Assembly: GCF_028369095.1 (NCBI RefSeq)
Contig: NZ_JAQNDN010000024.1
Location: 409,350-473,349, forward strand
From: Nannocystis radixulma
GTDB lineage: Bacteria > Myxococcota_A > Polyangia > Nannocystales > Nannocystaceae
Reading direction: 5' to 3'
Length of the DNA stretch: 64,000 nt
Shown here: one piece after another, positions 805 to 62,610 of the stretch
Numbering within the stretch: the first letter of the stretch is position 1
Layout of the letters: each line of letters opens with the position of its first letter
Translations under genes and position numbers: made by a program
The notes under the pieces: model-generated
What the model was told of the DNA's origin: nothing
The model's input: only the letters and a program-made list of their open reading frames with translations
Database searches by the model: none

Positions 805-5274
<4,470 letters not shown>

Positions 5275-6477: not shown

Positions 6478-7968
6478 ATGCCGCGCCTTTCGGCCGGCGC
6501 ACTATTCGCATTCAGCGCGGCGACGCTGGTCGCCTGCGGCGACGACGGCAGTGATTCCACCGCGAGCGAGACCGACACCGACAGCGAGACCGGCACCGAC
6601 ACGATCGATCCGACCGCCACGACCGGCCCGGGCACCACCAGCACCACCGACCCGACCACCACCGGCGTCCCGACCACCACCGACGACGGCACGGTCACCG
6701 ATCCCACGAGCCCGACGACGACGACGACGACGGCGACCGACACCGACGCGATCACCAGCACGACGACGACGGGGACCGACACGGGTCCGGACACGACGAC
6801 CGGCGACACGACGACCGGCGACACGACGACCGGCGACACGACGACCGAGGGCGACACGAGCACCTCGACGAGCACCGGCGTCGACACGGACACCTCCAGC
6901 ACGGGCGATACCGACACGGGCGGGCCGGTGAAGCCCGACGACTGCGTCGACCTGTCGCTCGCGGACGTCGAGTTGCTCAGTCAGCAGCAGCACCAGTTCG
7001 ACAGCGCGTGGATGGTGCCGCTGGTGCGCTCGCCGGAGTCGCTGGCGAGCCTGACCGGCGACGAGGCGCTGTCCGACCTGCTGCGGATCCTCTTCTCCGG
7101 CGACATCACGGTCGGCGTCCACGCGCTCGACCCCGATCCCAACCACGCGTTCCCCGACTACGTGACGAACTTCGTCACCACCAGCAACGCGGCGGTGACC
7201 CTGCAGGAGGACCTGGTCGACCAGGCCTACACCAAGGTGTTCACGGCCGTGGCGGGCGAGCTCGAGATCTTCGAGCTGGTGTCGTCGCACCAGACCCGCG
7301 GCGTGGTGCGCCACGTCGAGCTGCGGGAGATGGCGCCGAACCCCGACACCGAGGCGCTCGAGCCGGTCGAGGGCGGCGCCTGCTACTGGATCGCGGAGGC
7401 CGAGTACGACGTGCGGCGCGTGAATGGCTGCACGCCGTACACGGACGACGCCTGCCCCGAGGGACAGTTCTGCATGCCGACCAACGCGATCGGCTCCGAC
7501 GGCGAGTGCGTCACCGGCGGGACGAAGCTCGAGGGCGAGGCCTGCGTCCGCCCCGACCCCGAGCTGTGGGACTCCGACTGCGAGCTCGGCCTGCGCTGCC
7601 TCAACCCCGGCGACGGCCCCACGTGCATGAAGGTCTGCGACGTGCTGTCCGACGCGCCCGGCTGCGCCGAGGGGACCCACTGCGGCGGTGGCTACAACCT
7701 GTGCCTCGACGAGGCGGAGCTGCAGAACAGCGGGATCGATCCCGCGCCCGTCGGCGAGCCCTGCGCCGACAACCCGGAGGCCCTCTACTGCGGCGGCGCC
7801 GGCCGGCCGGGGACCTGCTGGGACGACGACGGCAACGGCCCGATGCCGTCGAGCTGCCGGCCCTTCGTGTCGGCGCCCTCGCAGTGCGTCGCGCCGCAGA
7901 CGGCCGGGCACATCGCCTACAAGGACACGATCGACCGCTCGACGCTGTGGTGCTTCGAGCTGCCGTGA
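6478..7968 (+). CDS. Secreted lipoprotein with a Thr/Asp/Gly-rich linker and a cysteine-rich C-terminal domain
   Basis: MPRLSAGALFAFSAATLVACGDDGS lipobox, about 140 aa of T/D/G low complexity, then a Cys-rich globular C-terminus. Confidence 0.7.
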   Translation: MPRLSAGALFAFSAATLVACGDDGSDSTASETDTDSETGTDTIDPTATTGPGTTSTTDPTTTGVPTTTDDGTVTDPTSPTTTTTTATDTDAITSTTTTGTDTGPDTTTGDTTTGDTTTGDTTTEGDTSTSTSTGVDTDTSSTGDTDTGGPVKPDDCVDLSLADVELLSQQQHQFDSAWMVPLVRSPESLASLTGDEALSDLLRILFSGDITVGVHALDPDPNHAFPDYVTNFVTTSNAAVTLQEDLVDQAYTKVFTAVAGELEIFELVSSHQTRGVVRHVELREMAPNPDTEALEPVEGGACYWIAEAEYDVRRVNGCTPYTDDACPEGQFCMPTNAIGSDGECVTGGTKLEGEACVRPDPELWDSDCELGLRCLNPGDGPTCMKVCDVLSDAPGCAEGTHCGGGYNLCLDEAELQNSGIDPAPVGEPCADNPEALYCGGAGRPGTCWDDDGNGPMPSSCRPFVSAPSQCVAPQTAGHIAYKDTIDRSTLWCFELP

Positions 7969-9316: not shown

Positions 9317-9390
9317 TGAGGATGATATGTCCAAAAGGACATGCGCAAAAAGACATGCATCCGCGCAGGGCGACCCGCGGGGATGCATGT
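9317..9390. repeat. 14-bp-period palindromic repeat array (about 6 units, several degenerate), upstream of the 8609..9106 lipoprotein gene
   Basis: ATG centres at 9317, 9331, 9345 and 9373 with degenerate units at 9359 and 9387; units are gatATGTcc, ggACATGCgc, agACATGCat. Confidence 0.6.
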
Positions 9391-21838: not shown

Positions 21839-21890
21839 GGCATGTTTGAGAGGGCATGTCCGTTCGGGCATGCCCTTCAGGGCCTGGTCG
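21838..21890. repeat. 14-bp-period palindromic repeat array (4-5 units) filling the whole convergent intergenic gap
   Basis: Centres at 21842, 21856, 21870 and 21884: gaggCATGTTtg / agggCATGTCcg / cgggCATGCCct / agggCCTGGTcg, with degenerate flanking units overlapping both stop codons. Confidence 0.7.
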
Positions 21891-33137: not shown

Positions 33138-33210
33138 GTGGCTGAAGGGACATGCCCCTGAGAGCCTGTGCTCAGGGGCATGGCTCCGAGGACATGTCCG
33201 AATCGCCACC
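33132..33210. repeat. 14-bp-period palindromic repeat array (5-6 units) between convergent genes, overlapping the last 8 codons of the methyltransferase gene
   Basis: Centres at 33150, 33164, 33178 and 33192 exactly 14 bp apart; units are ggacatgccc, gagcctgtgc, gggcatggct and a perfect ggacatgtcc. Confidence 0.7.
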
Positions 33211-34446
33211 CTCGGCGCGGAAGTAGCGGAAGCCGCCGCCGCCGCGCCAGCCGACCACCGCGGTGACGCCGCTGGGGTCGCGCCCGTCGACGACGGCGCG
33301 CAGGCGGGCTGCCACCAGGCCGTCGCAGTGGTCGCCGCGCTCGACGAGGATCCACCGCCGCCGCAGCTTGTGGGCGACGGCGCCGGTGGTGCCCGAGCCG
33401 GCGTAGACGTCGAGGACCCAGTCGCCGGGGCGGGTCGACAGCTCGAGCACGCGCTTCAGCAGGGCCTCGGGCTTCTTGCCCTTGGGGAAGGCGACGCCGC
33501 CCTCGTTGTGCAGGTTGTTGGACAGCAGGTCGTCCCAGATGGTGGTGAGCGGCTCGCCGGCGACCCGCTCGCCGTCGATGTGCTTGAGCTTGGCGGCGTA
33601 GAAGAGGATCCGCTCGCCGCGGACGAAGTAGAAGTCGTCGTGGTCGTCGCGCTCCAGCCGGAGCACCTGCCCCGGCGCGGCCTTCGAGCGGTCGATCATG
33701 GCCCGCGCGGCGGCGCTGACGGCGTTGTAGTCGGGCCGCGCGAGGCGGACGACGGCGTCGGCGTGGTCGAGGACGAAGCGGTCGAGCCGCGCCGGCTCGT
33801 CGCGCGCGAGCTGCCGGGCGGCGCGCTCAGCCAGGCCCTCGGCGTCGGCGAAGGCGCGCAGCAGGGTGACGATCCGCCACGCCTCGTGCGGCTCGCCGCG
33901 GTTGACGATGAACTGGGCGTAACGTGGGTCGCGCTCGCGGGCGGTGAACAGCCGCGGCGGGTTCCAGCGCGCGCGGTCCTTCGCGTAGACGAGGACGAAG
34001 TTGGAGGTGGTGACGCAGCCGGGGTTGATCGCCTTGTGGCCGGTCGGCGCGCCCTGCTTGAAGGTGACGACCGAGGCCCGGTTGGCGCGCCCGAACACCT
34101 CGTCGAGCAGGACGATGAGGTAGCCGAGCTCGTTGTCGTCGATGTGCACGAACAGGGTGCCGTCAGCGGCGAGCAGGCGGCGCAACACCTCGAGTCGCGC
34201 GCGGATGTCGGCGAGCCAGCGCGCGTGCTCGACCCCGTCGTCATAGTGGGCGAAGGCGCGGCCGGTGTTGTACGGTGGATCGATGTAGACGCAGCGGATC
34301 TTGCCGGCGAACTCGGACTCGAGCGCGAGCAGGGCGGGCAGGTTGTCGCCGCGGATCAGGCGGTTGTCGTACAGCTCGCCGTCGACCTCGGGGCCGCCGG
34401 CGCGGTACGATCGCGCGAGATCTTCGATCAGGGGACGCGGGTCCAC
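33172..34446 (-). CDS. Beta-class (motif IV before motif I) N6-adenine/N4-cytosine DNA methyltransferase, Mod-like, with no restriction partner
   Basis: IDPPYNTG (motif IV) near the N-terminus and LDVYAGSGTTG (motif I) near the C-terminus with about 300 aa between them, a putative target-recognition domain. No res or helicase gene is adjacent. Confidence 0.75.
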   Translation of the reverse strand: MDPRPLIEDLARSYRAGGPEVDGELYDNRLIRGDNLPALLALESEFAGKIRCVYIDPPYNTGRAFAHYDDGVEHARWLADIRARLEVLRRLLAADGTLFVHIDDNELGYLIVLLDEVFGRANRASVVTFKQGAPTGHKAINPGCVTTSNFVLVYAKDRARWNPPRLFTARERDPRYAQFIVNRGEPHEAWRIVTLLRAFADAEGLAERAARQLARDEPARLDRFVLDHADAVVRLARPDYNAVSAAARAMIDRSKAAPGQVLRLERDDHDDFYFVRGERILFYAAKLKHIDGERVAGEPLTTIWDDLLSNNLHNEGGVAFPKGKKPEALLKRVLELSTRPGDWVLDVYAGSGTTGAVAHKLRRRWILVERGDHCDGLVAARLRAVVDGRDPSGVTAVVGWRGGGGFRYFRAEGGDSDMSSEPCP

Positions 34447-34586
34447 GACGAGACGCTAGGGCAGCGGGGCTGAAAACGCCAGAAGGTCGGAGCCGATGAC
34501 GCCGAGCGCCGACAGGCCGCCGAACCGCGGCGGGAAACGTCGGGCGTTCGCACGTCCACCGATTCGCGGCCGCACGGGCGTATGGT

Positions 34587-40181: not shown

Positions 40182-40258
40182 GGATATGCATGAACGAACA
40201 TGTCGAGAAAGGCATGTCAAAGAAGACATGTCTATGAGGACATGACCGAACAGTCTCC
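40182..40258. repeat. 14-bp-period palindromic repeat array (5-6 units) downstream of the GFA gene; a second irregular cluster lies at 40413-40468
   Basis: ATG centres at 40186, 40200, 40214, 40228 and 40242: atATGCATga / gaACATGTCg / agGCATGTCa / agACATGTCt / agGACATGAcc. Confidence 0.7.
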
Positions 40259-56718: not shown

Positions 56719-57705
56719 ATGCCCGCCCGCGCACTCCGACTCGTGTCCCTCGCGCTGCTCGTGACGGCAGCGCCCGCCTGCGTGAAGCACTCGTCGACGC
56801 CGATGACGGGCAAGGTCGAGGTGCCGCTGTCCGACCGGCGGATCGGGCAGTACATCTCGTCGGGCTGGTCGTTCGACACGTCGAGCTTCTGGATCGAGGG
56901 GCCCGAGGGGGTGGTGGTGATCGATGTGCAGTTCCTGCCCTCGGTGGCGGCGGAGGTCATCGCGGCGGCCGAGCGAGTGACGCGCAAGAAGGTGGTGGCG
57001 GCGATCGTGCTGCACGCCAACCCCGACAAGTTCAACGGGACGGCGACGTTCCAGGCCCGCGGGATCGAGGTGTGGACGGCAGAGCAGGTGCTGGCGCTGA
57101 TCCCCGAGGTGTTCGCCCGCCGCACCGAGGCGTTCGCCGAGCGCTACGCGCCCGATTGGCCGACGGCGGTGCCGCAGCCCAAGAGCTTCGGGGCGGCGAC
57201 GACGACGCTGAAGCTGGCCGGCCTCGAGCTGAAGGCGCACGTGCTCGGACCCGGCTGCAGCGCGGCGCACGTGGTGATCGAATGGGAAGACCACGTGTTC
57301 GTCGGCGACCTGGTGGCCAACCAGGCCCACGCGTGGCTCGAGATCGGCGAGACGGACGCGTGGCTGCAGCGGCTGTCCGAGATCGAGGCGATGACGCCGC
57401 GCCACGTGCACCCGGGCCGGGGTCGCTCGGCGGGGCCGGAGCTGCTGACGGCCCAGCGCGAGTACCTGCAGACGGTGATCGACCTGGTGAAGGCGGAGAA
57501 GCCGACGACGCCGCCCGAGCCGGCGGCGGTGCTGCGGGTGCGCGCGGAGCTCGAGCGCAAGTACGAGGGCTACCGCTTCCCGGTGTTCCTCGAGATCGGG
57601 CTGCCCGCAGTGTGGCGCCGGTTGGCGCAGGCGAACCCACCGGCGAGCGCGAGCGCGAACGAGGGCGATCAGCCCGCCGGGTCGAACCCGACGTCGCAGC
57701 CGTAG
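56719..57705 (+). CDS. Lipoprotein, possibly a divergent MBL-fold metallo-hydrolase
   Basis: LLVTAAPACVK lipobox; His/Asp-rich segments (LHANPDKFNG, HVVIEWEDH); fold assignment tentative. Confidence 0.45.
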   Translation: MPARALRLVSLALLVTAAPACVKHSSTPMTGKVEVPLSDRRIGQYISSGWSFDTSSFWIEGPEGVVVIDVQFLPSVAAEVIAAAERVTRKKVVAAIVLHANPDKFNGTATFQARGIEVWTAEQVLALIPEVFARRTEAFAERYAPDWPTAVPQPKSFGAATTTLKLAGLELKAHVLGPGCSAAHVVIEWEDHVFVGDLVANQAHAWLEIGETDAWLQRLSEIEAMTPRHVHPGRGRSAGPELLTAQREYLQTVIDLVKAEKPTTPPEPAAVLRVRAELERKYEGYRFPVFLEIGLPAVWRRLAQANPPASASANEGDQPAGSNPTSQP

Positions 57706-58946
57706 CGGACGTCGAGCTTGGCGGCCTGGTCGGCCTGGACCTCGGCGCAGGCGTCGGGGCACAGAACGACGGTGGCGTTCTCGATGTAGAAGGCGTCGGG
57801 CTCGCAACTGGCGAGGTCGACGACCTGGTGGAACGGCTTGGGCGGGGCCATCCCGCCGACCTGGTAGTCGATCTCGATCGTGTTCGGATCGATCTCACCC
57901 ATCGGCGGCTCGGGGATCGGGAACGAACAGGCGATCGGGGTGCTCTCGACGACGTCCTTGGCGATCTCCTGGAAGAGGACGCCGAAGGCGCCGGTCTGCG
58001 ACAGCGGGAAGCGCCAGCCGCCGCTGAGCACGCTGACGCGCTGGATCGAGTCGCCGTTGCCCTGCATCGGATCGCCCGGCAACCACGGGGCGTCCGGCGG
58101 GTTGTTGGGGCTCATGTCGATGATGGTGTGGAAGACGTAGTCGCGCGCGCCGGGGGTGCCGAAGTGCGGCGGGTTCAAGGCCAGCAGGGCGGCGTCGAAG
58201 GCGTCACCGTCGGCGTCGGTGTCCGAGGCGCTGCTGCCGTCGGTCATGGCGAGGAAGACCTTGCGCGTGCCGTCGCGCAGGAAATCCTTGTAGCCGCCCG
58301 GGGCGAGGCCGTGGACGTCCGGGGCGCTGTACCAGGCGAGGATGTTGGCGAGGAAGGCGCCCGAGCCGGTGGCGGCGTCGTAGTGCTTGTAACGCTCGGT
58401 GACGGCAGGGACGGGCGGAGGCGCGTTGCAGTCGGTGCCCGACAGCGGCGAGCTGATGCAGATCGAGAGCTGATCGCCGGGCGGGTAGTCGCCGAGCACG
58501 ATGACGCGGTAGTCGATGTTGCTGGCGGCGAGGATGGCGGCAAAATCGACGTTGATGCTGGCCTCGACGGCGGCGATGGCGGCCTGCATCGAGTTGGAGG
58601 TGTCGACGACGACGATGACGTCGACGGGGATCGACTGCACCTGCGGCTCGAGCATCTGCGCGGCACACTCGCCGGTGGTCATGTCGCCCTGGTCCGGCTG
58701 GACGCCGAGGTCGAGCTTGGGAGTGCCCGAGGTCGAGACGGTGGTGGAGGTCGGCTCGTCGACGGTGGTGGTGCCGTCGGTGGTGGTGGCCTCGGTCGGG
58801 CCGAGGGTGGTCGGGCCAGGGCTGGTGGTGGTCTGCGTGGCGCCGTTCGCGGTGTCCTGAGGGCGGCCGTCGTCGCCGCAGGCGAGGAGCAGCAAGGCGC
58901 ACAAGAGAAGCGAATGAGTGCGAGACATGGCGCGATGGTACTGCAT
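57669..58946 (-). CDS. Secreted lipoprotein with a von Willebrand factor type A (vWA) domain
   Basis: LLLLACGDDG lipobox, Thr linker and a MIDAS-like VIVVVDTSNSM. Confidence 0.7.
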   Translation of the reverse strand: MQYHRAMSRTHSLLLCALLLLACGDDGRPQDTANGATQTTTSPGPTTLGPTEATTTDGTTTVDEPTSTTVSTSGTPKLDLGVQPDQGDMTTGECAAQMLEPQVQSIPVDVIVVVDTSNSMQAAIAAVEASINVDFAAILAASNIDYRVIVLGDYPPGDQLSICISSPLSGTDCNAPPPVPAVTERYKHYDAATGSGAFLANILAWYSAPDVHGLAPGGYKDFLRDGTRKVFLAMTDGSSASDTDADGDAFDAALLALNPPHFGTPGARDYVFHTIIDMSPNNPPDAPWLPGDPMQGNGDSIQRVSVLSGGWRFPLSQTGAFGVLFQEIAKDVVESTPIACSFPIPEPPMGEIDPNTIEIDYQVGGMAPPKPFHQVVDLASCEPDAFYIENATVVLCPDACAEVQADQAAKLDVRYGCDVGFDPAG

Positions 58947-59090
58947 GGCGAGGCTGAACGGGGCGCGAAGGTGGGCGCGCGGGGCCGGCGATCGTGGATC
59001 GGCGGGGGCCTGATGAGCTGGTCGATGGGACAGGTGGCGATCGGGGCGCGATGAGCAGTTCGCCGCGCGGAGGGAGTGGCGTGGGGGCTT

Positions 59091-59345
59091 CGCTGATTGC
59101 CGGATGCGCCTCGCGGGGGGTCCGGGGATGGCTCGGCCGCCAGTTCAGCGTGCCGATGACCCCGACTTCGTCGTGGTCATCTCGCCCTCGTATTGGCGGC
59201 CGAGCCATCCCCGGACCCCATGCACGGCTCACCCGTGAGAAGCCGGCCCGCCGTGGTGGGCTTCGATGAGGGATGTCTCTTGGGGCAGGTCGTCGGCGCC
59301 TGTTCGACGGCCTGGTCGGCCGCCGAACAGACGCTTTCTCGCGGA
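59091..59345 (+). repeat. Copy A of a ~255-bp structured element with a perfect 25-bp-stem hairpin (59119-59143 pairs with 59197-59221, 53-nt loop); MITE-like or a structured ncRNA
   Basis: About 90% identical to the inverted copy at 61751-62000. The stem is ggggtccggggatggctcggccgcc ... ggcggccgagccatccccggacccc. Confidence 0.7.
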
Positions 59346-59402
59346 CATGCCGGCGGGCCTCGTGGCGCGGCGAATTCCCGCGACGAGCGGGACGACTGCG
59401 CT

Positions 59403-60284
59403 TCATCCGCCGATGAGGCACACACACATCGGGTAGCCGTCCGCATTGCCGCACACGTCTCGTTTTTTGACGCCCAGTGCGTCCAGCGCCTCGTGAACGC
59501 TCTCTTCGGAGAGGAAGTGGTTGTGGCGAATGGTCGCTATTTGCAGCGGCGAAGAGGCGCCGTTCGCGGCCAGGGCGTCGAGGATCTCCGCCGTCACGAG
59601 CGCCTCGTTGCCCTCCAGCGTGAGCCGTTCGATCGTCGTGAGAGCGGCGAACCCGGCCAGGTCGGCGAGGGCGAGGTTGTTCGCCGCCGGCAGCGTGTCG
59701 GCGCAGAAGCCGATCCGCATCCAGACCAGGGTCTCGAGCGAATCGAAGCGAATCGCCTCGGCGGCTGGATTGCCGTAGAACGTGAAGCCCACGGTCGAGC
59801 GAAGCCGGTCGAAACCGATGGCCGTCCTGAGATTGGTATTGTCGACGATCAGGATCGACTGGACGTTCTGGAGGTTCTCGAGCCCCTCGGTGGACTCGAG
59901 CCGGGTGGTGCCACGAATGTCCAGCGAGCCGTCGATCGTATGGAGGCACTTCAGGAAGGACAGGTCCCGCTGATCGTCATCGCCGAGGAGGATGCGGAGA
60001 TCGCCGCGGACGAGTCCGATGTCTTCCAGGCTCGCCAGATTGGGTCCCGGCCAGACCACGAGATCGCCGTCGTGGACGCGGCCGCAGGGCTCGGGCTCGC
60101 CGGTCGTCGGTTCGCTCGTCGTCGCGGCGCTCGTGGTCTCGTGCTCCGTCGAGCTGCCGCCGGCGTCGTCCTGGGAAGGCTCGTCTCCGCATGCGGCGAC
60201 GAGCAGGTGGAGCGCGAGGAGCGATGACTCGAGGCGAGCCAGGGCCCATGCGCCGCCGCGCAGGAGCGAGCGAGAGCGAGACAT
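59403..60284 (-). CDS. Secreted lipoprotein with leucine-rich-repeat/receptor-L-domain-like repeats
   Basis: LLVAACGDEPSQ lipobox and repeated L-x-x-L-x-x-N/L motifs. Confidence 0.55.
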   Translation of the reverse strand: MSRSRSLLRGGAWALARLESSLLALHLLVAACGDEPSQDDAGGSSTEHETTSAATTSEPTTGEPEPCGRVHDGDLVVWPGPNLASLEDIGLVRGDLRILLGDDDQRDLSFLKCLHTIDGSLDIRGTTRLESTEGLENLQNVQSILIVDNTNLRTAIGFDRLRSTVGFTFYGNPAAEAIRFDSLETLVWMRIGFCADTLPAANNLALADLAGFAALTTIERLTLEGNEALVTAEILDALAANGASSPLQIATIRHNHFLSEESVHEALDALGVKKRDVCGNADGYPMCVCLIGG

Positions 60285-60310
60285 TGTTCGATGGTAGCCG
60301 GTCGCGAACG

Positions 60311-60349
60311 TCTCAGGGCTTCGAGGACATGTCGGCGATGTCGCGCAGG
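60311..60349. repeat. Palindromic repeat units (about 3) in the promoter region of the 59403..60284 gene
   Basis: tctCAGGGCttcgagGACATGTCggcgATGTCGCgc; centres at 60315 and 60329. Confidence 0.5.
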
Positions 60350-61575
60350 ACGTCGTCCGGCGTGCTCGGGTAGGCGGTCTGGCGGCGGAACCACTGCTCG
60401 AGCGCCTCGGCGAGCGGGAGGCCGTTGTCGGCGGCGTAGCGGCGCCAGAACGCGCCCCACCAGCCGGGAGGCTCGCGCTTGCCGGCGCCGCCGTCGTCCC
60501 ACTCGGTGACGCGGCCGGTCTCGCCGGCGTCGACGAGGGAGCCGACGGCGGTCGCGTCGGCGAGCACGCGCTCGAGCTGGGCGCCGATGTCGACCAGGAC
60601 GTCCTCGTCGAGCTGGCCGTCGCTGGTGGCCTTGTAGAACTGCACGGTGACGCGGATCGGGAAGCGTTCGTCGCGGACGATCGGCAGGTCGTCGATCTCG
60701 GTGAACGGGCCCTCGACGTCGCCGTGGCCGATGATGGCGGGCTCGACGACGGAGATCCCGCGCTCCTGCTCCATGACCATCCAGTCCAGGGTCGGCCCGA
60801 ATTGACGCAGCGGGACCTGGATCAGCAGCACCGCGCTCGCGGCGGCCGGGCTGTTACAGGCTGTCTCCGAGGATATGTGTTCGCTCGCACGGGTGGCGGT
60901 GAACGGGGCCCGCTGTCCGGCCTGGTTGAACAGCAGGCGCTGACCCAGGGCGCCGGCGACGGCGAAGGCGTCGCGGTGGTTGTCGACGACGGTGGCGCTG
61001 GTGCCCTCGCGCGTGGCGAGGATCGCCAGCACGGCGGGGTCGCGGCGGCGCGATTGATAATTGAAGATCACCGGGGTGAAGGTGGCGAGGCCGGCGCGCG
61101 GGACCGGGAGCAGACACGCCTGCGGGCTGACGAGGACGTGGGTGTCGCGCGGAGCGAGCAGGGAGCCGACATCGCCCGCCCAGCCGTCCGGACGGGTGAG
61201 GTGGGCGCGCAGGTCGGTGAGGTACTCGCGCAGGCCGATCGTCCGCAGCGGCTCGCCGCGCTCGTTGCCGACGTGCAGGCGCACGACGTCGATCGGCAGG
61301 TCGCCGGTGCGGTCGGCGAAATTTGGAAAACGGATCACCGGCATGCACGTCAGCCAGGGCCGCCCGCGGCTGCGACTCTGCACCTGGATCGTCATGTCGC
61401 TGATGTTCGGGCCGACCATGGAGCCCTTGTAGCGCGCGGTGTCCTCCCAGGTGACGTGCAGGAGGTGGAGGCCGAGCACGTCGAGCTGCGCCCGCGTGGC
61501 GACGTCGATCCGCGGGCGGGCGACCGCCTGCACGACCTCGTGATAGGCCTCGTCCGGATCCTGCGCGGAGCTCAT
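60313..61575 (-). CDS. Hypothetical protein (420 aa) of unknown function
   Basis: Start MSSAQDPDEAYHEVV; balanced composition. Two palindromic units lie in-frame inside it (...SEHISSETAC...). Confidence 0.5.
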   Translation of the reverse strand: MSSAQDPDEAYHEVVQAVARPRIDVATRAQLDVLGLHLLHVTWEDTARYKGSMVGPNISDMTIQVQSRSRGRPWLTCMPVIRFPNFADRTGDLPIDVVRLHVGNERGEPLRTIGLREYLTDLRAHLTRPDGWAGDVGSLLAPRDTHVLVSPQACLLPVPRAGLATFTPVIFNYQSRRRDPAVLAILATREGTSATVVDNHRDAFAVAGALGQRLLFNQAGQRAPFTATRASEHISSETACNSPAAASAVLLIQVPLRQFGPTLDWMVMEQERGISVVEPAIIGHGDVEGPFTEIDDLPIVRDERFPIRVTVQFYKATSDGQLDEDVLVDIGAQLERVLADATAVGSLVDAGETGRVTEWDDGGAGKREPPGWWGAFWRRYAADNGLPLAEALEQWFRRQTAYPSTPDDVLRDIADMSSKP

Positions 61576-61750
61576 GACGTCGGCCAGCGTACCAGCTCGC
61601 GCGGCGCTACAGGATGCTGCGCCGCGCGGGCGTCGTCGCGCTTGCGAATGGCCGGACGGACGACTGGCCATTCGCATATCGCCGCTCGGACTCGACCTGC
61701 GTGCGCGAACGCGAGTGTCGCCGCTTCGCCACGGGAGATGACCCGCCGTT

Positions 61751-62000
61751 TGGGACGCCAGAAAGCGTCTGCTCGGCGGCCGACCAGGCCGACGAGCAGG
61801 CGCAGCCGATCTGCGCCGCAGGATGTCCAGCATCGAAGCCCCCGTCGGCGGGTCGGCTTCTCACGGGTGAGCCGTGCCAGGGGTCCGGGGATGCCTCGGT
61901 CGCCAATACGAGGGCAAGATGACCACGACGAAGTCGGGGTCATCGGCACGCTGAACTGGCGGCCGAGGCATCCCCGGACCCCCCGCGAGGCGCATCCGGC
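61751..62000 (-). repeat. Copy B (inverted orientation) of the ~255-bp hairpin element
   Basis: Reverse complement aligns with 59091-59340 at about 90% identity. The hairpin is preserved, with one compensatory pair (G-C to C-G) and one G.T wobble. Confidence 0.7.
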
Positions 62001-62029
62001 AATCAGCGAAGCGACTGCAGCCGGTCTCC

Positions 62030-62122
62030 GGGTCTCGAAACGTCTCCATGTCTTGGAGGACATGCCCTATCGAGCATGCTTCATTAAGCATGTCGAATCG
62101 AACATGCTCGATGCGACATCAG
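62030..62122. repeat. 14-bp-period palindromic repeat array (6-7 units) immediately downstream of the permease gene and next to hairpin-element copy B
   Basis: ATG centres at 62048, 62062, 62076, 62090 and 62104, exactly 14 bp apart: tCCATGTCtt / gGACATGCCc / gaGCATGCTt / aaGCATGTCg / gaACATGCTc. Confidence 0.7.
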
Positions 62123-62610
62123 GCGCGCCCGAGGCGGACGAGGGCCTGGGCGGTGTAGCCGGCGGCGAAGGGGAGCAGGCAGGAGGCGACGATGCGGAGG
62201 GCGGCGAGGCGGCCGCCGTAGATGCCGATCTCCATCGGGACGCGGAGGAGCGGCAGGAGGGCCATGCTGGTGAGGTAGGTGACGAGGACGCCGACGCCGG
62301 CGCCGGCCTTGAGGAGGCCGGCCGCGAGCGGCATGCCGAGGAGGCCGCCGCCGGGGGTCAGGGCGCCGGCGAACCAGGCGACGAGGTGGCCGCGCGGGCC
62401 GGCGGCGTCGCTGAGCCAGCGCTCGACGAAGCCGGCGGGCAACAGGGCCTCGGCCATGCCGGCGAGCAAGAACGCGACCACGAGGATCGGCATCATCGCC
62501 AGGAAGGTGCGGCCCGAGCGCTGGAGGCCGTCGACGAACACGCCCTGCATGGCCGCGAGCGCGCCGAGGACGAGCAGCGTGGCGCCGAGCAGGATGAGGG
62601 CGATCTTCAT
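62119..62610 (-). CDS. Small integral membrane protein, putative permease
   Basis: 163 aa, about 5 hydrophobic helices. Confidence 0.5.
   Translation of the reverse strand: MKIALILLGATLLVLGALAAMQGVFVDGLQRSGRTFLAMMPILVVAFLLAGMAEALLPAGFVERWLSDAAGPRGHLVAWFAGALTPGGGLLGMPLAAGLLKAGAGVGVLVTYLTSMALLPLLRVPMEIGIYGGRLAALRIVASCLLPFAAGYTAQALVRLGRA

Follow-up and report, generated by a model that had tools for sequence, protein, structure and literature searches.

Composites bounded by miniature inverted-repeat transposable elements (MITEs), such as integron mobilisation units and MITE-flanked class 1 integrons, have been described in Acinetobacter and Enterobacter; in these units each MITE has short terminal inverted repeats, the target is duplicated over 5 bp, and the transposon family of origin is known. 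Intergenic palindromes such as REPINs (inverted doublets of repetitive extragenic palindromic (REP) sequences), enterobacterial repetitive intergenic consensus (ERIC) sequences and Correia elements are present in tens to hundreds of copies per genome, with REPINs having a cognate RAYT transposase. The attC sites of integrons are 57-141 nt long and stand in direct orientation beside intI, and the Xer-dependent pdif sites measure 28 bp. The non-coding RNA (ncRNA) of myxobacterial retrons is about 300 nt long and consists of small hairpins followed by one long hairpin (PMC6868368). Here we describe an inverted pair of repeats, designated copy A and copy B, in a 64-kb stretch of the Nannocystis radixulma genome (assembly GCF_028369095.1, contig NZ_JAQNDN010000024.1, positions 409,350 to 473,349; hereafter the window). 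The pair is a real, previously undescribed, lineage-restricted and non-coding element with a conserved fold, and it frames a slot of gene turnover. Nothing was found in the literature on such repeats in Nannocystis or other myxobacteria.

To judge by analogy, the arrangement would work most like MITE-bounded composites or the attC and pdif cassette systems, and it appears to be a member of none of them. Like MITE-bounded composites, it consists of inverted non-coding copies of a few hundred bp around passenger genes, with presence/absence variation and no internal transposase; unlike them, it has no duplication, no parent was found, two copies are seen, and the cargo changes while the repeats stay. 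With REPINs, ERIC and Correia elements it shares a long imperfect intergenic hairpin, compensated pairing and a lack of coding capacity, but it is roughly double their length and folds into a further, second domain. As with attC and pdif, hairpin sites lie at the cassette edges, structure is better conserved than the intervening sequence, and the cargo is exchangeable. In this case, however, the element is ~300 nt long and inverted, with no integrase or recombinase nearby, and an integron cassette with attC sites was rejected on these grounds.

Inverted repeats flanking a two-gene cassette

A repeat search of the window, which has a G+C content of 72%, identified two inverted arms of 288 nt (59087-59374 and 61725-62012) that are 86% complementary and 2350 nt apart. 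With blastn, 59087-59343 aligned to 62012-61756 at 89.9% identity over 257 nt (E = 6e-98), bearing out the inverted pair of about 250 bp at about 90% identity that had been reported in the initial annotation, which was made from the sequence alone. The same annotation placed two minus-strand genes in the bracketed segment, encoding a leucine-rich repeat (LRR)-like lipoprotein and a protein of 420 amino acids (aa), and both were confirmed (Table 1). The full unit is ~300-310 bp long and comprises a 150-nt hairpin and a second, smaller folded domain. Weaker homology extends outward from copy A to ~59065 and from copy B to ~62034. The outer ends look sharp in N. radixulma; comparison of eight copies from four lineages added ~22 nt of weaker homology past GCTTCG. 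At the inner ends, homology decays gradually.

Table 1. Repeat copies, their folded domains, and the genes in and around the slot. Positions are those of the window unless a locus of a relative (L numbers) is named.
Feature	Position or locus	Strand	Description
Copy A	59087..59374	+	Forward orientation, defined as starting GCTTCGCTGATTGCC, pointing inward to the cassette; orthologues at L001 7455-7741, L002 8258-8545, L016 8231-8497
Copy B	61725..62012	-	Forward orientation on the minus strand, likewise pointing inward; orthologues at L001 5565-5851, L002 3341-3627, L016 6591-6860
Long hairpin, copy A	59092..59243		152 nt; covariance model score 178.7 bits
Long hairpin, copy B	61856..62007		152 nt; covariance model score 179.7 bits
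Second domain, copy A	59245..59359		9-bp helix (59245-59253 with 59351-59359) enclosing variable small hairpins and the 17-bp hairpin
17-bp hairpin, copy A	59296..59334, with TTTCT tail to 59339	+	Terminator-like on the forward strand
17-bp hairpin, copy B	61765..61803	-	Compensatory C-G where copy A has U-A
Cargo gene 1	59403..60284	-	293-aa lipoprotein with Recep_L/LRR-like domain
Cargo gene 2	60313..61575	-	420-aa protein of a widespread uncharacterised family with thousands of homologues
Segment swapped for unrelated DNA in L016/L017	59358..61736		Break-points at the inner ends of copies A and B
Flanking gene, A side	57669..58928	-	VWFA-type lipoprotein gene; exact match to N. radixulma MDC0674382.1
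Flanking gene, B side	62119..62610	-	163-aa ArsP/YraQ-like permease gene; exact match to N. radixulma MDC0674385.1
14-bp-periodic array of RRCATGYY units	62047..62120		54% G+C; directly after the permease stop codon
Cargo in N. radixulma	Window		420-aa gene and LRR lipoprotein gene
Cargo in Nannocystis sp. SCPEA4 (GCA_026626685.1)	L001		420-aa gene and internally deleted LRR remnant
Cargo in N. pusilla GCA_020073745	L002		Additional gene for a 665-aa IgGFc-binding lipoprotein, followed by 426-aa gene and Recep_L gene
Cargo in metagenomic relative	L016, L017		Single unrelated 321-aa lipoprotein gene on the opposite strand

Turnover of the enclosed genes across Nannocystis lineages

Orthologous loci were retrieved from relatives via the neighbouring proteins. 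The order of flanking genes was the same in all relatives, with TetR, an Rph-like phosphoenolpyruvate (PEP)-utilising enzyme and the 163-aa permease on one side, and the VWFA lipoprotein, a metallo-beta-lactamase-fold protein and a PA14 protein on the other. Four lineages have both copies between the permease and VWFA genes, with position and inverted arrangement unchanged, and the enclosed cargo differed among them (Table 1); the two loci of the metagenomic relative are identical across both copies. The LRR remnant of SCPEA4 (L001 7263-7455) joins the start of the gene to its last codons and reflects an internal deletion corresponding to about 59388-60226 of the window. The insertion of the extra gene in N. 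pusilla begins ~20-35 nt inside the inner end of copy B, and homology between the window and L016 stops at window positions 59357 and 61737, which are the inner ends of both copies. These comparisons show that the pair is inherited at a fixed position and that the DNA between its inner edges changes by deletion, insertion and complete replacement. In Nannocystaceae that are more distant, genes for the 420-aa family have unrelated neighbourhoods from which the element is absent, which indicates that this gene is cargo brought into the slot and not a partner of the repeats.

The synteny comparison with related strains had been proposed in the initial annotation, and besides the four lineages with cassette and repeats it yielded two genomes that have the flanks and lack the repeats, so that the syntenic site is polymorphic for their presence. 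In N. bainbridge (L019), the permease and VWFA genes are separated by 316 nt that contain neither repeats nor cargo, and in a second N. pusilla assembly (L020) the site holds ~8 kb of other genes, among them those for an S8 peptidase and an extracytoplasmic function (ECF) sigma factor. As the repeats are missing from both, the unit was acquired in particular lineages only, which is what mobile DNA would lead one to expect. The Rph-like gene is 91-97% identical to that of the window in the repeat-bearing lineages versus 87% in L019 and L020; by such flanking-gene identity the four repeat-bearing lineages are one another's closest relatives, and a single acquisition in their common ancestor would be the simplest history. 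The empty site of N. bainbridge is too diverged for the junction to be defined. Two resemblances of 7-10 nt to the element ends were seen there, but they are in the wrong order and were judged to be chance rather than remnants. An invertible segment of the shufflon or inverton type was also rejected: the three genomes that carry the 420-aa gene all have it in one orientation, the opposite-strand gene of L016 is unrelated, and no invertase was found.

Two further repeat structures were observed at these loci and their relatives. Downstream of the 321-aa cargo gene, L016 has two tandem units of ~62 bp (6868-7000), each with a GTTGCGGAG...CTCCGCAAC hairpin. A more distant relative (L010) encodes a homologue of the 420-aa protein together with two small genes between 44-nt inverted repeats (4571-4614 and 7327-7370) that are 84% complementary and unrelated in sequence to the element.

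A conserved fold with compensatory substitutions

Within each of the two repeats lies a palindrome whose own arms measure 66 nt around a loop of 3 nt (59101-59235 and 61864-61998), and folding z-scores against dinucleotide shuffles ranged from -7.6 to -10.3 on both strands. The eight distinct copies, representing two paralogues in each of four lineages, were aligned (alignment A8) and a consensus structure was calculated with RNAalifold; an alignment of the 152-nt hairpin (A10) was the source of the covariance model. The long hairpin has a perfect G+C-rich stem of 26-28 bp, conserved internal loops and an apical part, GATGACCCCGACTTCGTCGTGGTCATC, that is invariant in all copies, bulges included. 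In the 17-bp hairpin of copy A, both mismatches turn into G-U pairs on the opposite strand. Standard pairs make up 97.6% of the cells of the A8 structure. Two-sided changes were found at nine pairs, compared with 5.0 +/- 1.3 in shuffled alignments (nine was reached in 2 of 500) and 0-1 in slid controls, and an alignment of six sequences gave the same covariation picture. Five of the compensated pairs lie in the long hairpin (A8 pairs 55/129, 56/128, 62/122, 65/119 and 76/109), so that this hairpin is kept by compensatory changes in the manner of REPINs, for which such maintenance is known. Compensatory changes also occurred at 170/283 in the 9-bp helix, where G-C became A-U, and at 227/251 in the 17-bp hairpin. 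Judged from these alignments, the compensatory substitutions support a conserved fold that comprises the long hairpin, the 9-bp helix and the 17-bp hairpin. A closing stem that joins both ends of the element covaries in the three closest genomes (the close trio) and is not kept in L016.

Divergence at four-fold-degenerate sites is only 5-9% among the three closest genomes, so the 96-97% identity of their orthologous copies alone does not prove selection. Stronger arguments for it are that both copies outlasted a full exchange of the DNA between them, that the conserved helix strands stand as islands inside a second domain that is 25% diverged, and that divergence is faster in the outer flanks right beside the copies. 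The two copies of L016 are 88% alike versus 81-86% to either orthologue, and between A and B of the close trio identity is 94-97% in the hairpin halves, compared with only 69-76% in the second domains; these patterns point to occasional sequence exchange between the arms. Compensation takes place within copies and not between them, as at A8 pair 55/129 of N. radixulma, where copy A has G-C and copy B has C-G; this argues against a long A-B duplex as the selected structure.

A coding role was considered and rejected. Open frames cross the element, but one-base indels in copy B of SCPEA4 and of N. pusilla break them. The six translated frames, joined, had no match among 5.8 billion predicted proteins.

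The evidence on the strand is mixed. By the count of G-U versus A-C, the outward-reading strand leads by ~8 to 2 at one-sided changes that differ from copy to copy. Invariant G-U pairs are present on both strands, the consensus energies of the two strands are similar (-161 and -169 kcal/mol), and the 17-bp hairpin with its UUUCU tail, which is invariant in all copies, is terminator-like on the inward-reading strand only. These signals conflict, and neither strand appears clearly favoured. No sigma-70-like promoter or canonical terminator was detected, in a scan that does not cover myxobacterial sigma-54 or ECF promoters, and the 17-bp hairpin with TTTCT failed the terminator scan. Examined by eye, the outer 22 nt were rejected as a sigma-54 or ECF promoter, as the spacing does not fit sigma-54 and the likeness to ECF promoters is too weak.

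Searches for related elements

Rfam 15 gave no match at the gathering threshold anywhere in the window, so the Rfam search suggested in the initial annotation assigned no family to the element. The best sub-threshold results (E <= 10) were to miRNA precursor models at 22-26 bits, against thresholds of 52-96, and were regarded as hairpin noise. Searching a genome collection with the exact 22-nt terminus returned a chance match only; the known Nannocystis copies were not returned either, and this search is therefore uninformative on copy number. The 22-nt apical motif had four chance matches in a metagenome collection, in DNA of 57-64% G+C. The hairpin pattern was not found in a viral collection, and blastn against plasmids and phages gave no match. 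The chance matches of 22-23 nt are at L006 2263-2285, inside an acetyl-CoA synthetase gene of a Balneolales metagenome-assembled genome, and in metagenome contigs L012-L015; in all of them homology ends at the matched words.

Interpretation of the repeat pair

The reading we favour, with a probability of roughly 0.38, takes the copies to be boundary repeats that act at the level of DNA and frame a small, lineage-restricted islet between the permease and VWFA lipoprotein genes. Their ancestor would be a palindromic mobile element, non-autonomous and MITE- or REPIN-like. Most of the observations are covered by this reading. The repeats may serve as recombination boundaries, either because their folded ends would be recognised by a recombinase or transposase encoded elsewhere or because they would provide homology arms for cargo swaps between strains sharing the repeats. 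The hairpin would then be maintained because recognition requires the fold. A ~60-bp hairpin with 26-28 perfect G+C-rich pairs is typical of palindromic repeat elements and not of functional RNAs, and the lack of a clearly favoured strand in the count of G-U versus A-C is expected if both DNA strands matter. A bolder proposal, which we hold to be rather unlikely, is that the element is a ~300-nt folded recombination site read as a single-stranded DNA hairpin, the inverted pair forming a cassette-exchange slot served by a remote recombinase, or, equally, that it represents a new class of large structured RNA controlling the cargo.

Several results weigh against boundary repeats of mobile origin. 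No transposase, integrase or reverse transcriptase was present among the large open reading frames (ORFs) of the window or the fetched flanks; the absence of a transposase from the window had been stated in the initial annotation and was borne out when all large ORFs were examined. No third copy was detected in the window by blastn, and the hairpin covariance model recovered only the eight known copies from 189 kb of Nannocystis DNA. A target-site duplication was lacking, as no direct repeat is common to the outer flanks in any of the four lineages. The position is identical in all of these lineages and no transposition event was observed. The slot also varies in the repeat-less L020, so turnover does not strictly need the repeats. 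The outermost 22 nt are the least conserved stretch of the outer half, unlike the termini of transposons, and a conserved helix of 9 bp with 100 nt between its strands is a better fit to a single-stranded RNA fold than to duplex DNA. Of the MITE-flanked mobilisable cassette envisaged in the initial annotation, what stands is a replaceable cassette, with four cargos and an empty sister site; mobility of the transposon type is not supported, given the missing duplication and transposase, the fixed position and the lack of an extra copy in the sequences searched.

Each copy may instead specify a new structured RNA of ~250-300 nt, either as its gene or as a leader acting in cis, with the inverted paralogues arranged by chance and the fold under selection. 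We consider this explanation to be on the doubtful side and nearly as likely as that of boundary repeats. It accounts for a multi-helix fold shared by eight sequences with compensation in three helices, including the 9-bp helix with its strands ~100 nt apart, and for the invariant loops and bulges of the apical hairpin. Further points in its favour are the ~8 to 2 balance of variable one-sided changes towards the outward-reading strand, the invariant 17-bp hairpin with UUUCU on the inward-reading strand, the presence, in each lineage, of one inward-facing copy 150-245 nt ahead of the first cargo gene, and the indels in two copies that rule out coding. Counting against it are the lack of an Rfam family at threshold, of a sigma-70 promoter and of a canonical terminator, the conflicting strand signals, and very long perfect stems, which are atypical of functional RNAs. 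The element is also confined to one subclade and missing from N. bainbridge and a second strain of N. pusilla, an unusual distribution for a functional RNA, and this explanation leaves the inverted pairing and the cargo turnover unexplained. The paired structured-RNA genes offered as a second option in the initial annotation gain a conserved, compensated fold and lack a family match, a detectable promoter or terminator and an unambiguous strand; their support is genuine but not decisive. A further explanation, in which the copies are the RNA part of a retroelement or RNA-guided system with its protein encoded elsewhere (an orphan retron msr-msd, an omega-RNA or a bridge-RNA-like molecule), seems very improbable. 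The length of ~300 nt, the small hairpins followed by one long hairpin, the paired 5' and 3' ends in the close trio, and a myxobacterial host, from the group in which retrons were first found, all resemble retron msr-msd. The locus differs in having two inverted copies, a closing stem that is not conserved in L016, and no adjacent reverse transcriptase. A retron was rejected because no RVT domain was found in the window or the syntenic loci and msr was not matched; TnpB, IscB and IS110 recombinases were likewise absent from the window and flanks, and Rfam models for msr, HEARO and related families gave no match with the cut-off relaxed to E <= 10.

The repeats could also act on mRNA, as long stem-loops that end or insulate transcription from both directions and guard 3' ends, or as a ~290-bp A-B panhandle cut by RNase III, comparable to the RNase III-cut stems that flank rRNAs. 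The neighbouring genes are co-directional, so that a read-through transcript would contain copy B forward and copy A reversed, 86-90% complementary to each other; moreover, the last cargo gene of each lineage has a copy in reverse orientation after it, and the folds are very stable on both strands. We nevertheless find this explanation quite unlikely. Panhandle pairing is disfavoured by compensation within rather than between copies, as at A8 pair 55/129, and A-B identity within genomes is no higher than identity between genomes in the close trio. A U-rich tail is missing, and a CATG hairpin array, also present in a repeat-less genome, already stands at the 3' end of the permease gene. About as improbable is that the pair is an old, functionless inverted duplication of an intergenic stretch, kept alike by gene conversion and templated correction of quasi-palindromes. 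The four-fold divergence of only 5-9%, at which 96-97% orthologue identity is no proof of selection, and the signs of exchange between the arms are in keeping with neutrality. Both copies have, however, outlasted complete replacement of the intervening DNA with break-points at their inner edges, their patchy conservation tracks the helices, and the adjacent outer flanks diverge much faster.

Neighbouring genes and the CATG array

Beyond the slot, the window is ordinary chromosome, with genes for Lhr helicase, Fpg, NAD synthase, ribose-5-phosphate isomerase and similar proteins. The G+C content at third codon positions of cargo gene 1 is 0.85, below that of its neighbours. The VWFA-type and LRR-type lipoprotein genes share an 80%-identical stretch of 35 nt over their start codons (58906-58940 and 60262-60296), TACCATCG-N4-ATGTCTCGC, which encodes MSR..SLL and suggests a common translation-initiation or signal-peptide module of the two genes. 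The VWFA lipoprotein gene and the metallo-beta-lactamase-fold gene are convergent and overlap by 37 nt (57669-57705), an overlap kept in SCPEA4, N. pusilla GCA_020073745 and L016 and not in N. bainbridge.

The initial annotation also described a 14-bp array abutting copy B. The array exists, with its CATG core at 62047, 62061, 62075, 62089 and 62103 and CATC at 62117, and it lies ~35 nt outside the copy and is not part of the element; it was not reported by Tandem Repeats Finder. A role as part or operator of the element was rejected, since N. bainbridge, which lacks the repeats, keeps the array, and the motif is found at other places in the window. The CATG palindrome (roughly RRCATGYY, often CATGTC-N6-GACATG) is in strong excess: there are 16 instances of CATG-N10-CATG versus 0.67 expected, and arrays of three units with a strict 14-bp period occur at three loci versus 0.01 expected. 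Arrays are found in the window at 62047-62120, 21841-21872 and 40199-40244, and single units at 9340, 11126, 15242, 16152, 18324, 21073 and 33179; in relatives, arrays are present at L019 8506-8551 and L016 6502-6561. By ORF positions, most of the motif sites lie just after stop codons, and the permease-adjacent array is conserved in all relatives, including the repeat-less one. The same window also encodes an N6/N4 DNA methylase (33172-34455). From its distribution, the motif looks like a genus-specific terminator-like or REP-like motif, or possibly a protein-binding array.

Implications for gene exchange in myxobacteria

Myxobacterial genomes are very large, plastic and rich in variable lipoprotein genes, and the swapping of small gene sets within them is poorly understood. 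The locus described here offers a compact case that can be compared across genomes, with the same flanks, the same two folded repeats, four cargos and an empty site. If the repeats are RNAs, they would constitute a new large structured RNA with a clear genomic context. If they are recombination substrates, they would represent a new route of cassette exchange, and a slot framed by folded sites would mean that integron- or pdif-like swapping of cargo takes place in myxobacteria without a local integrase.

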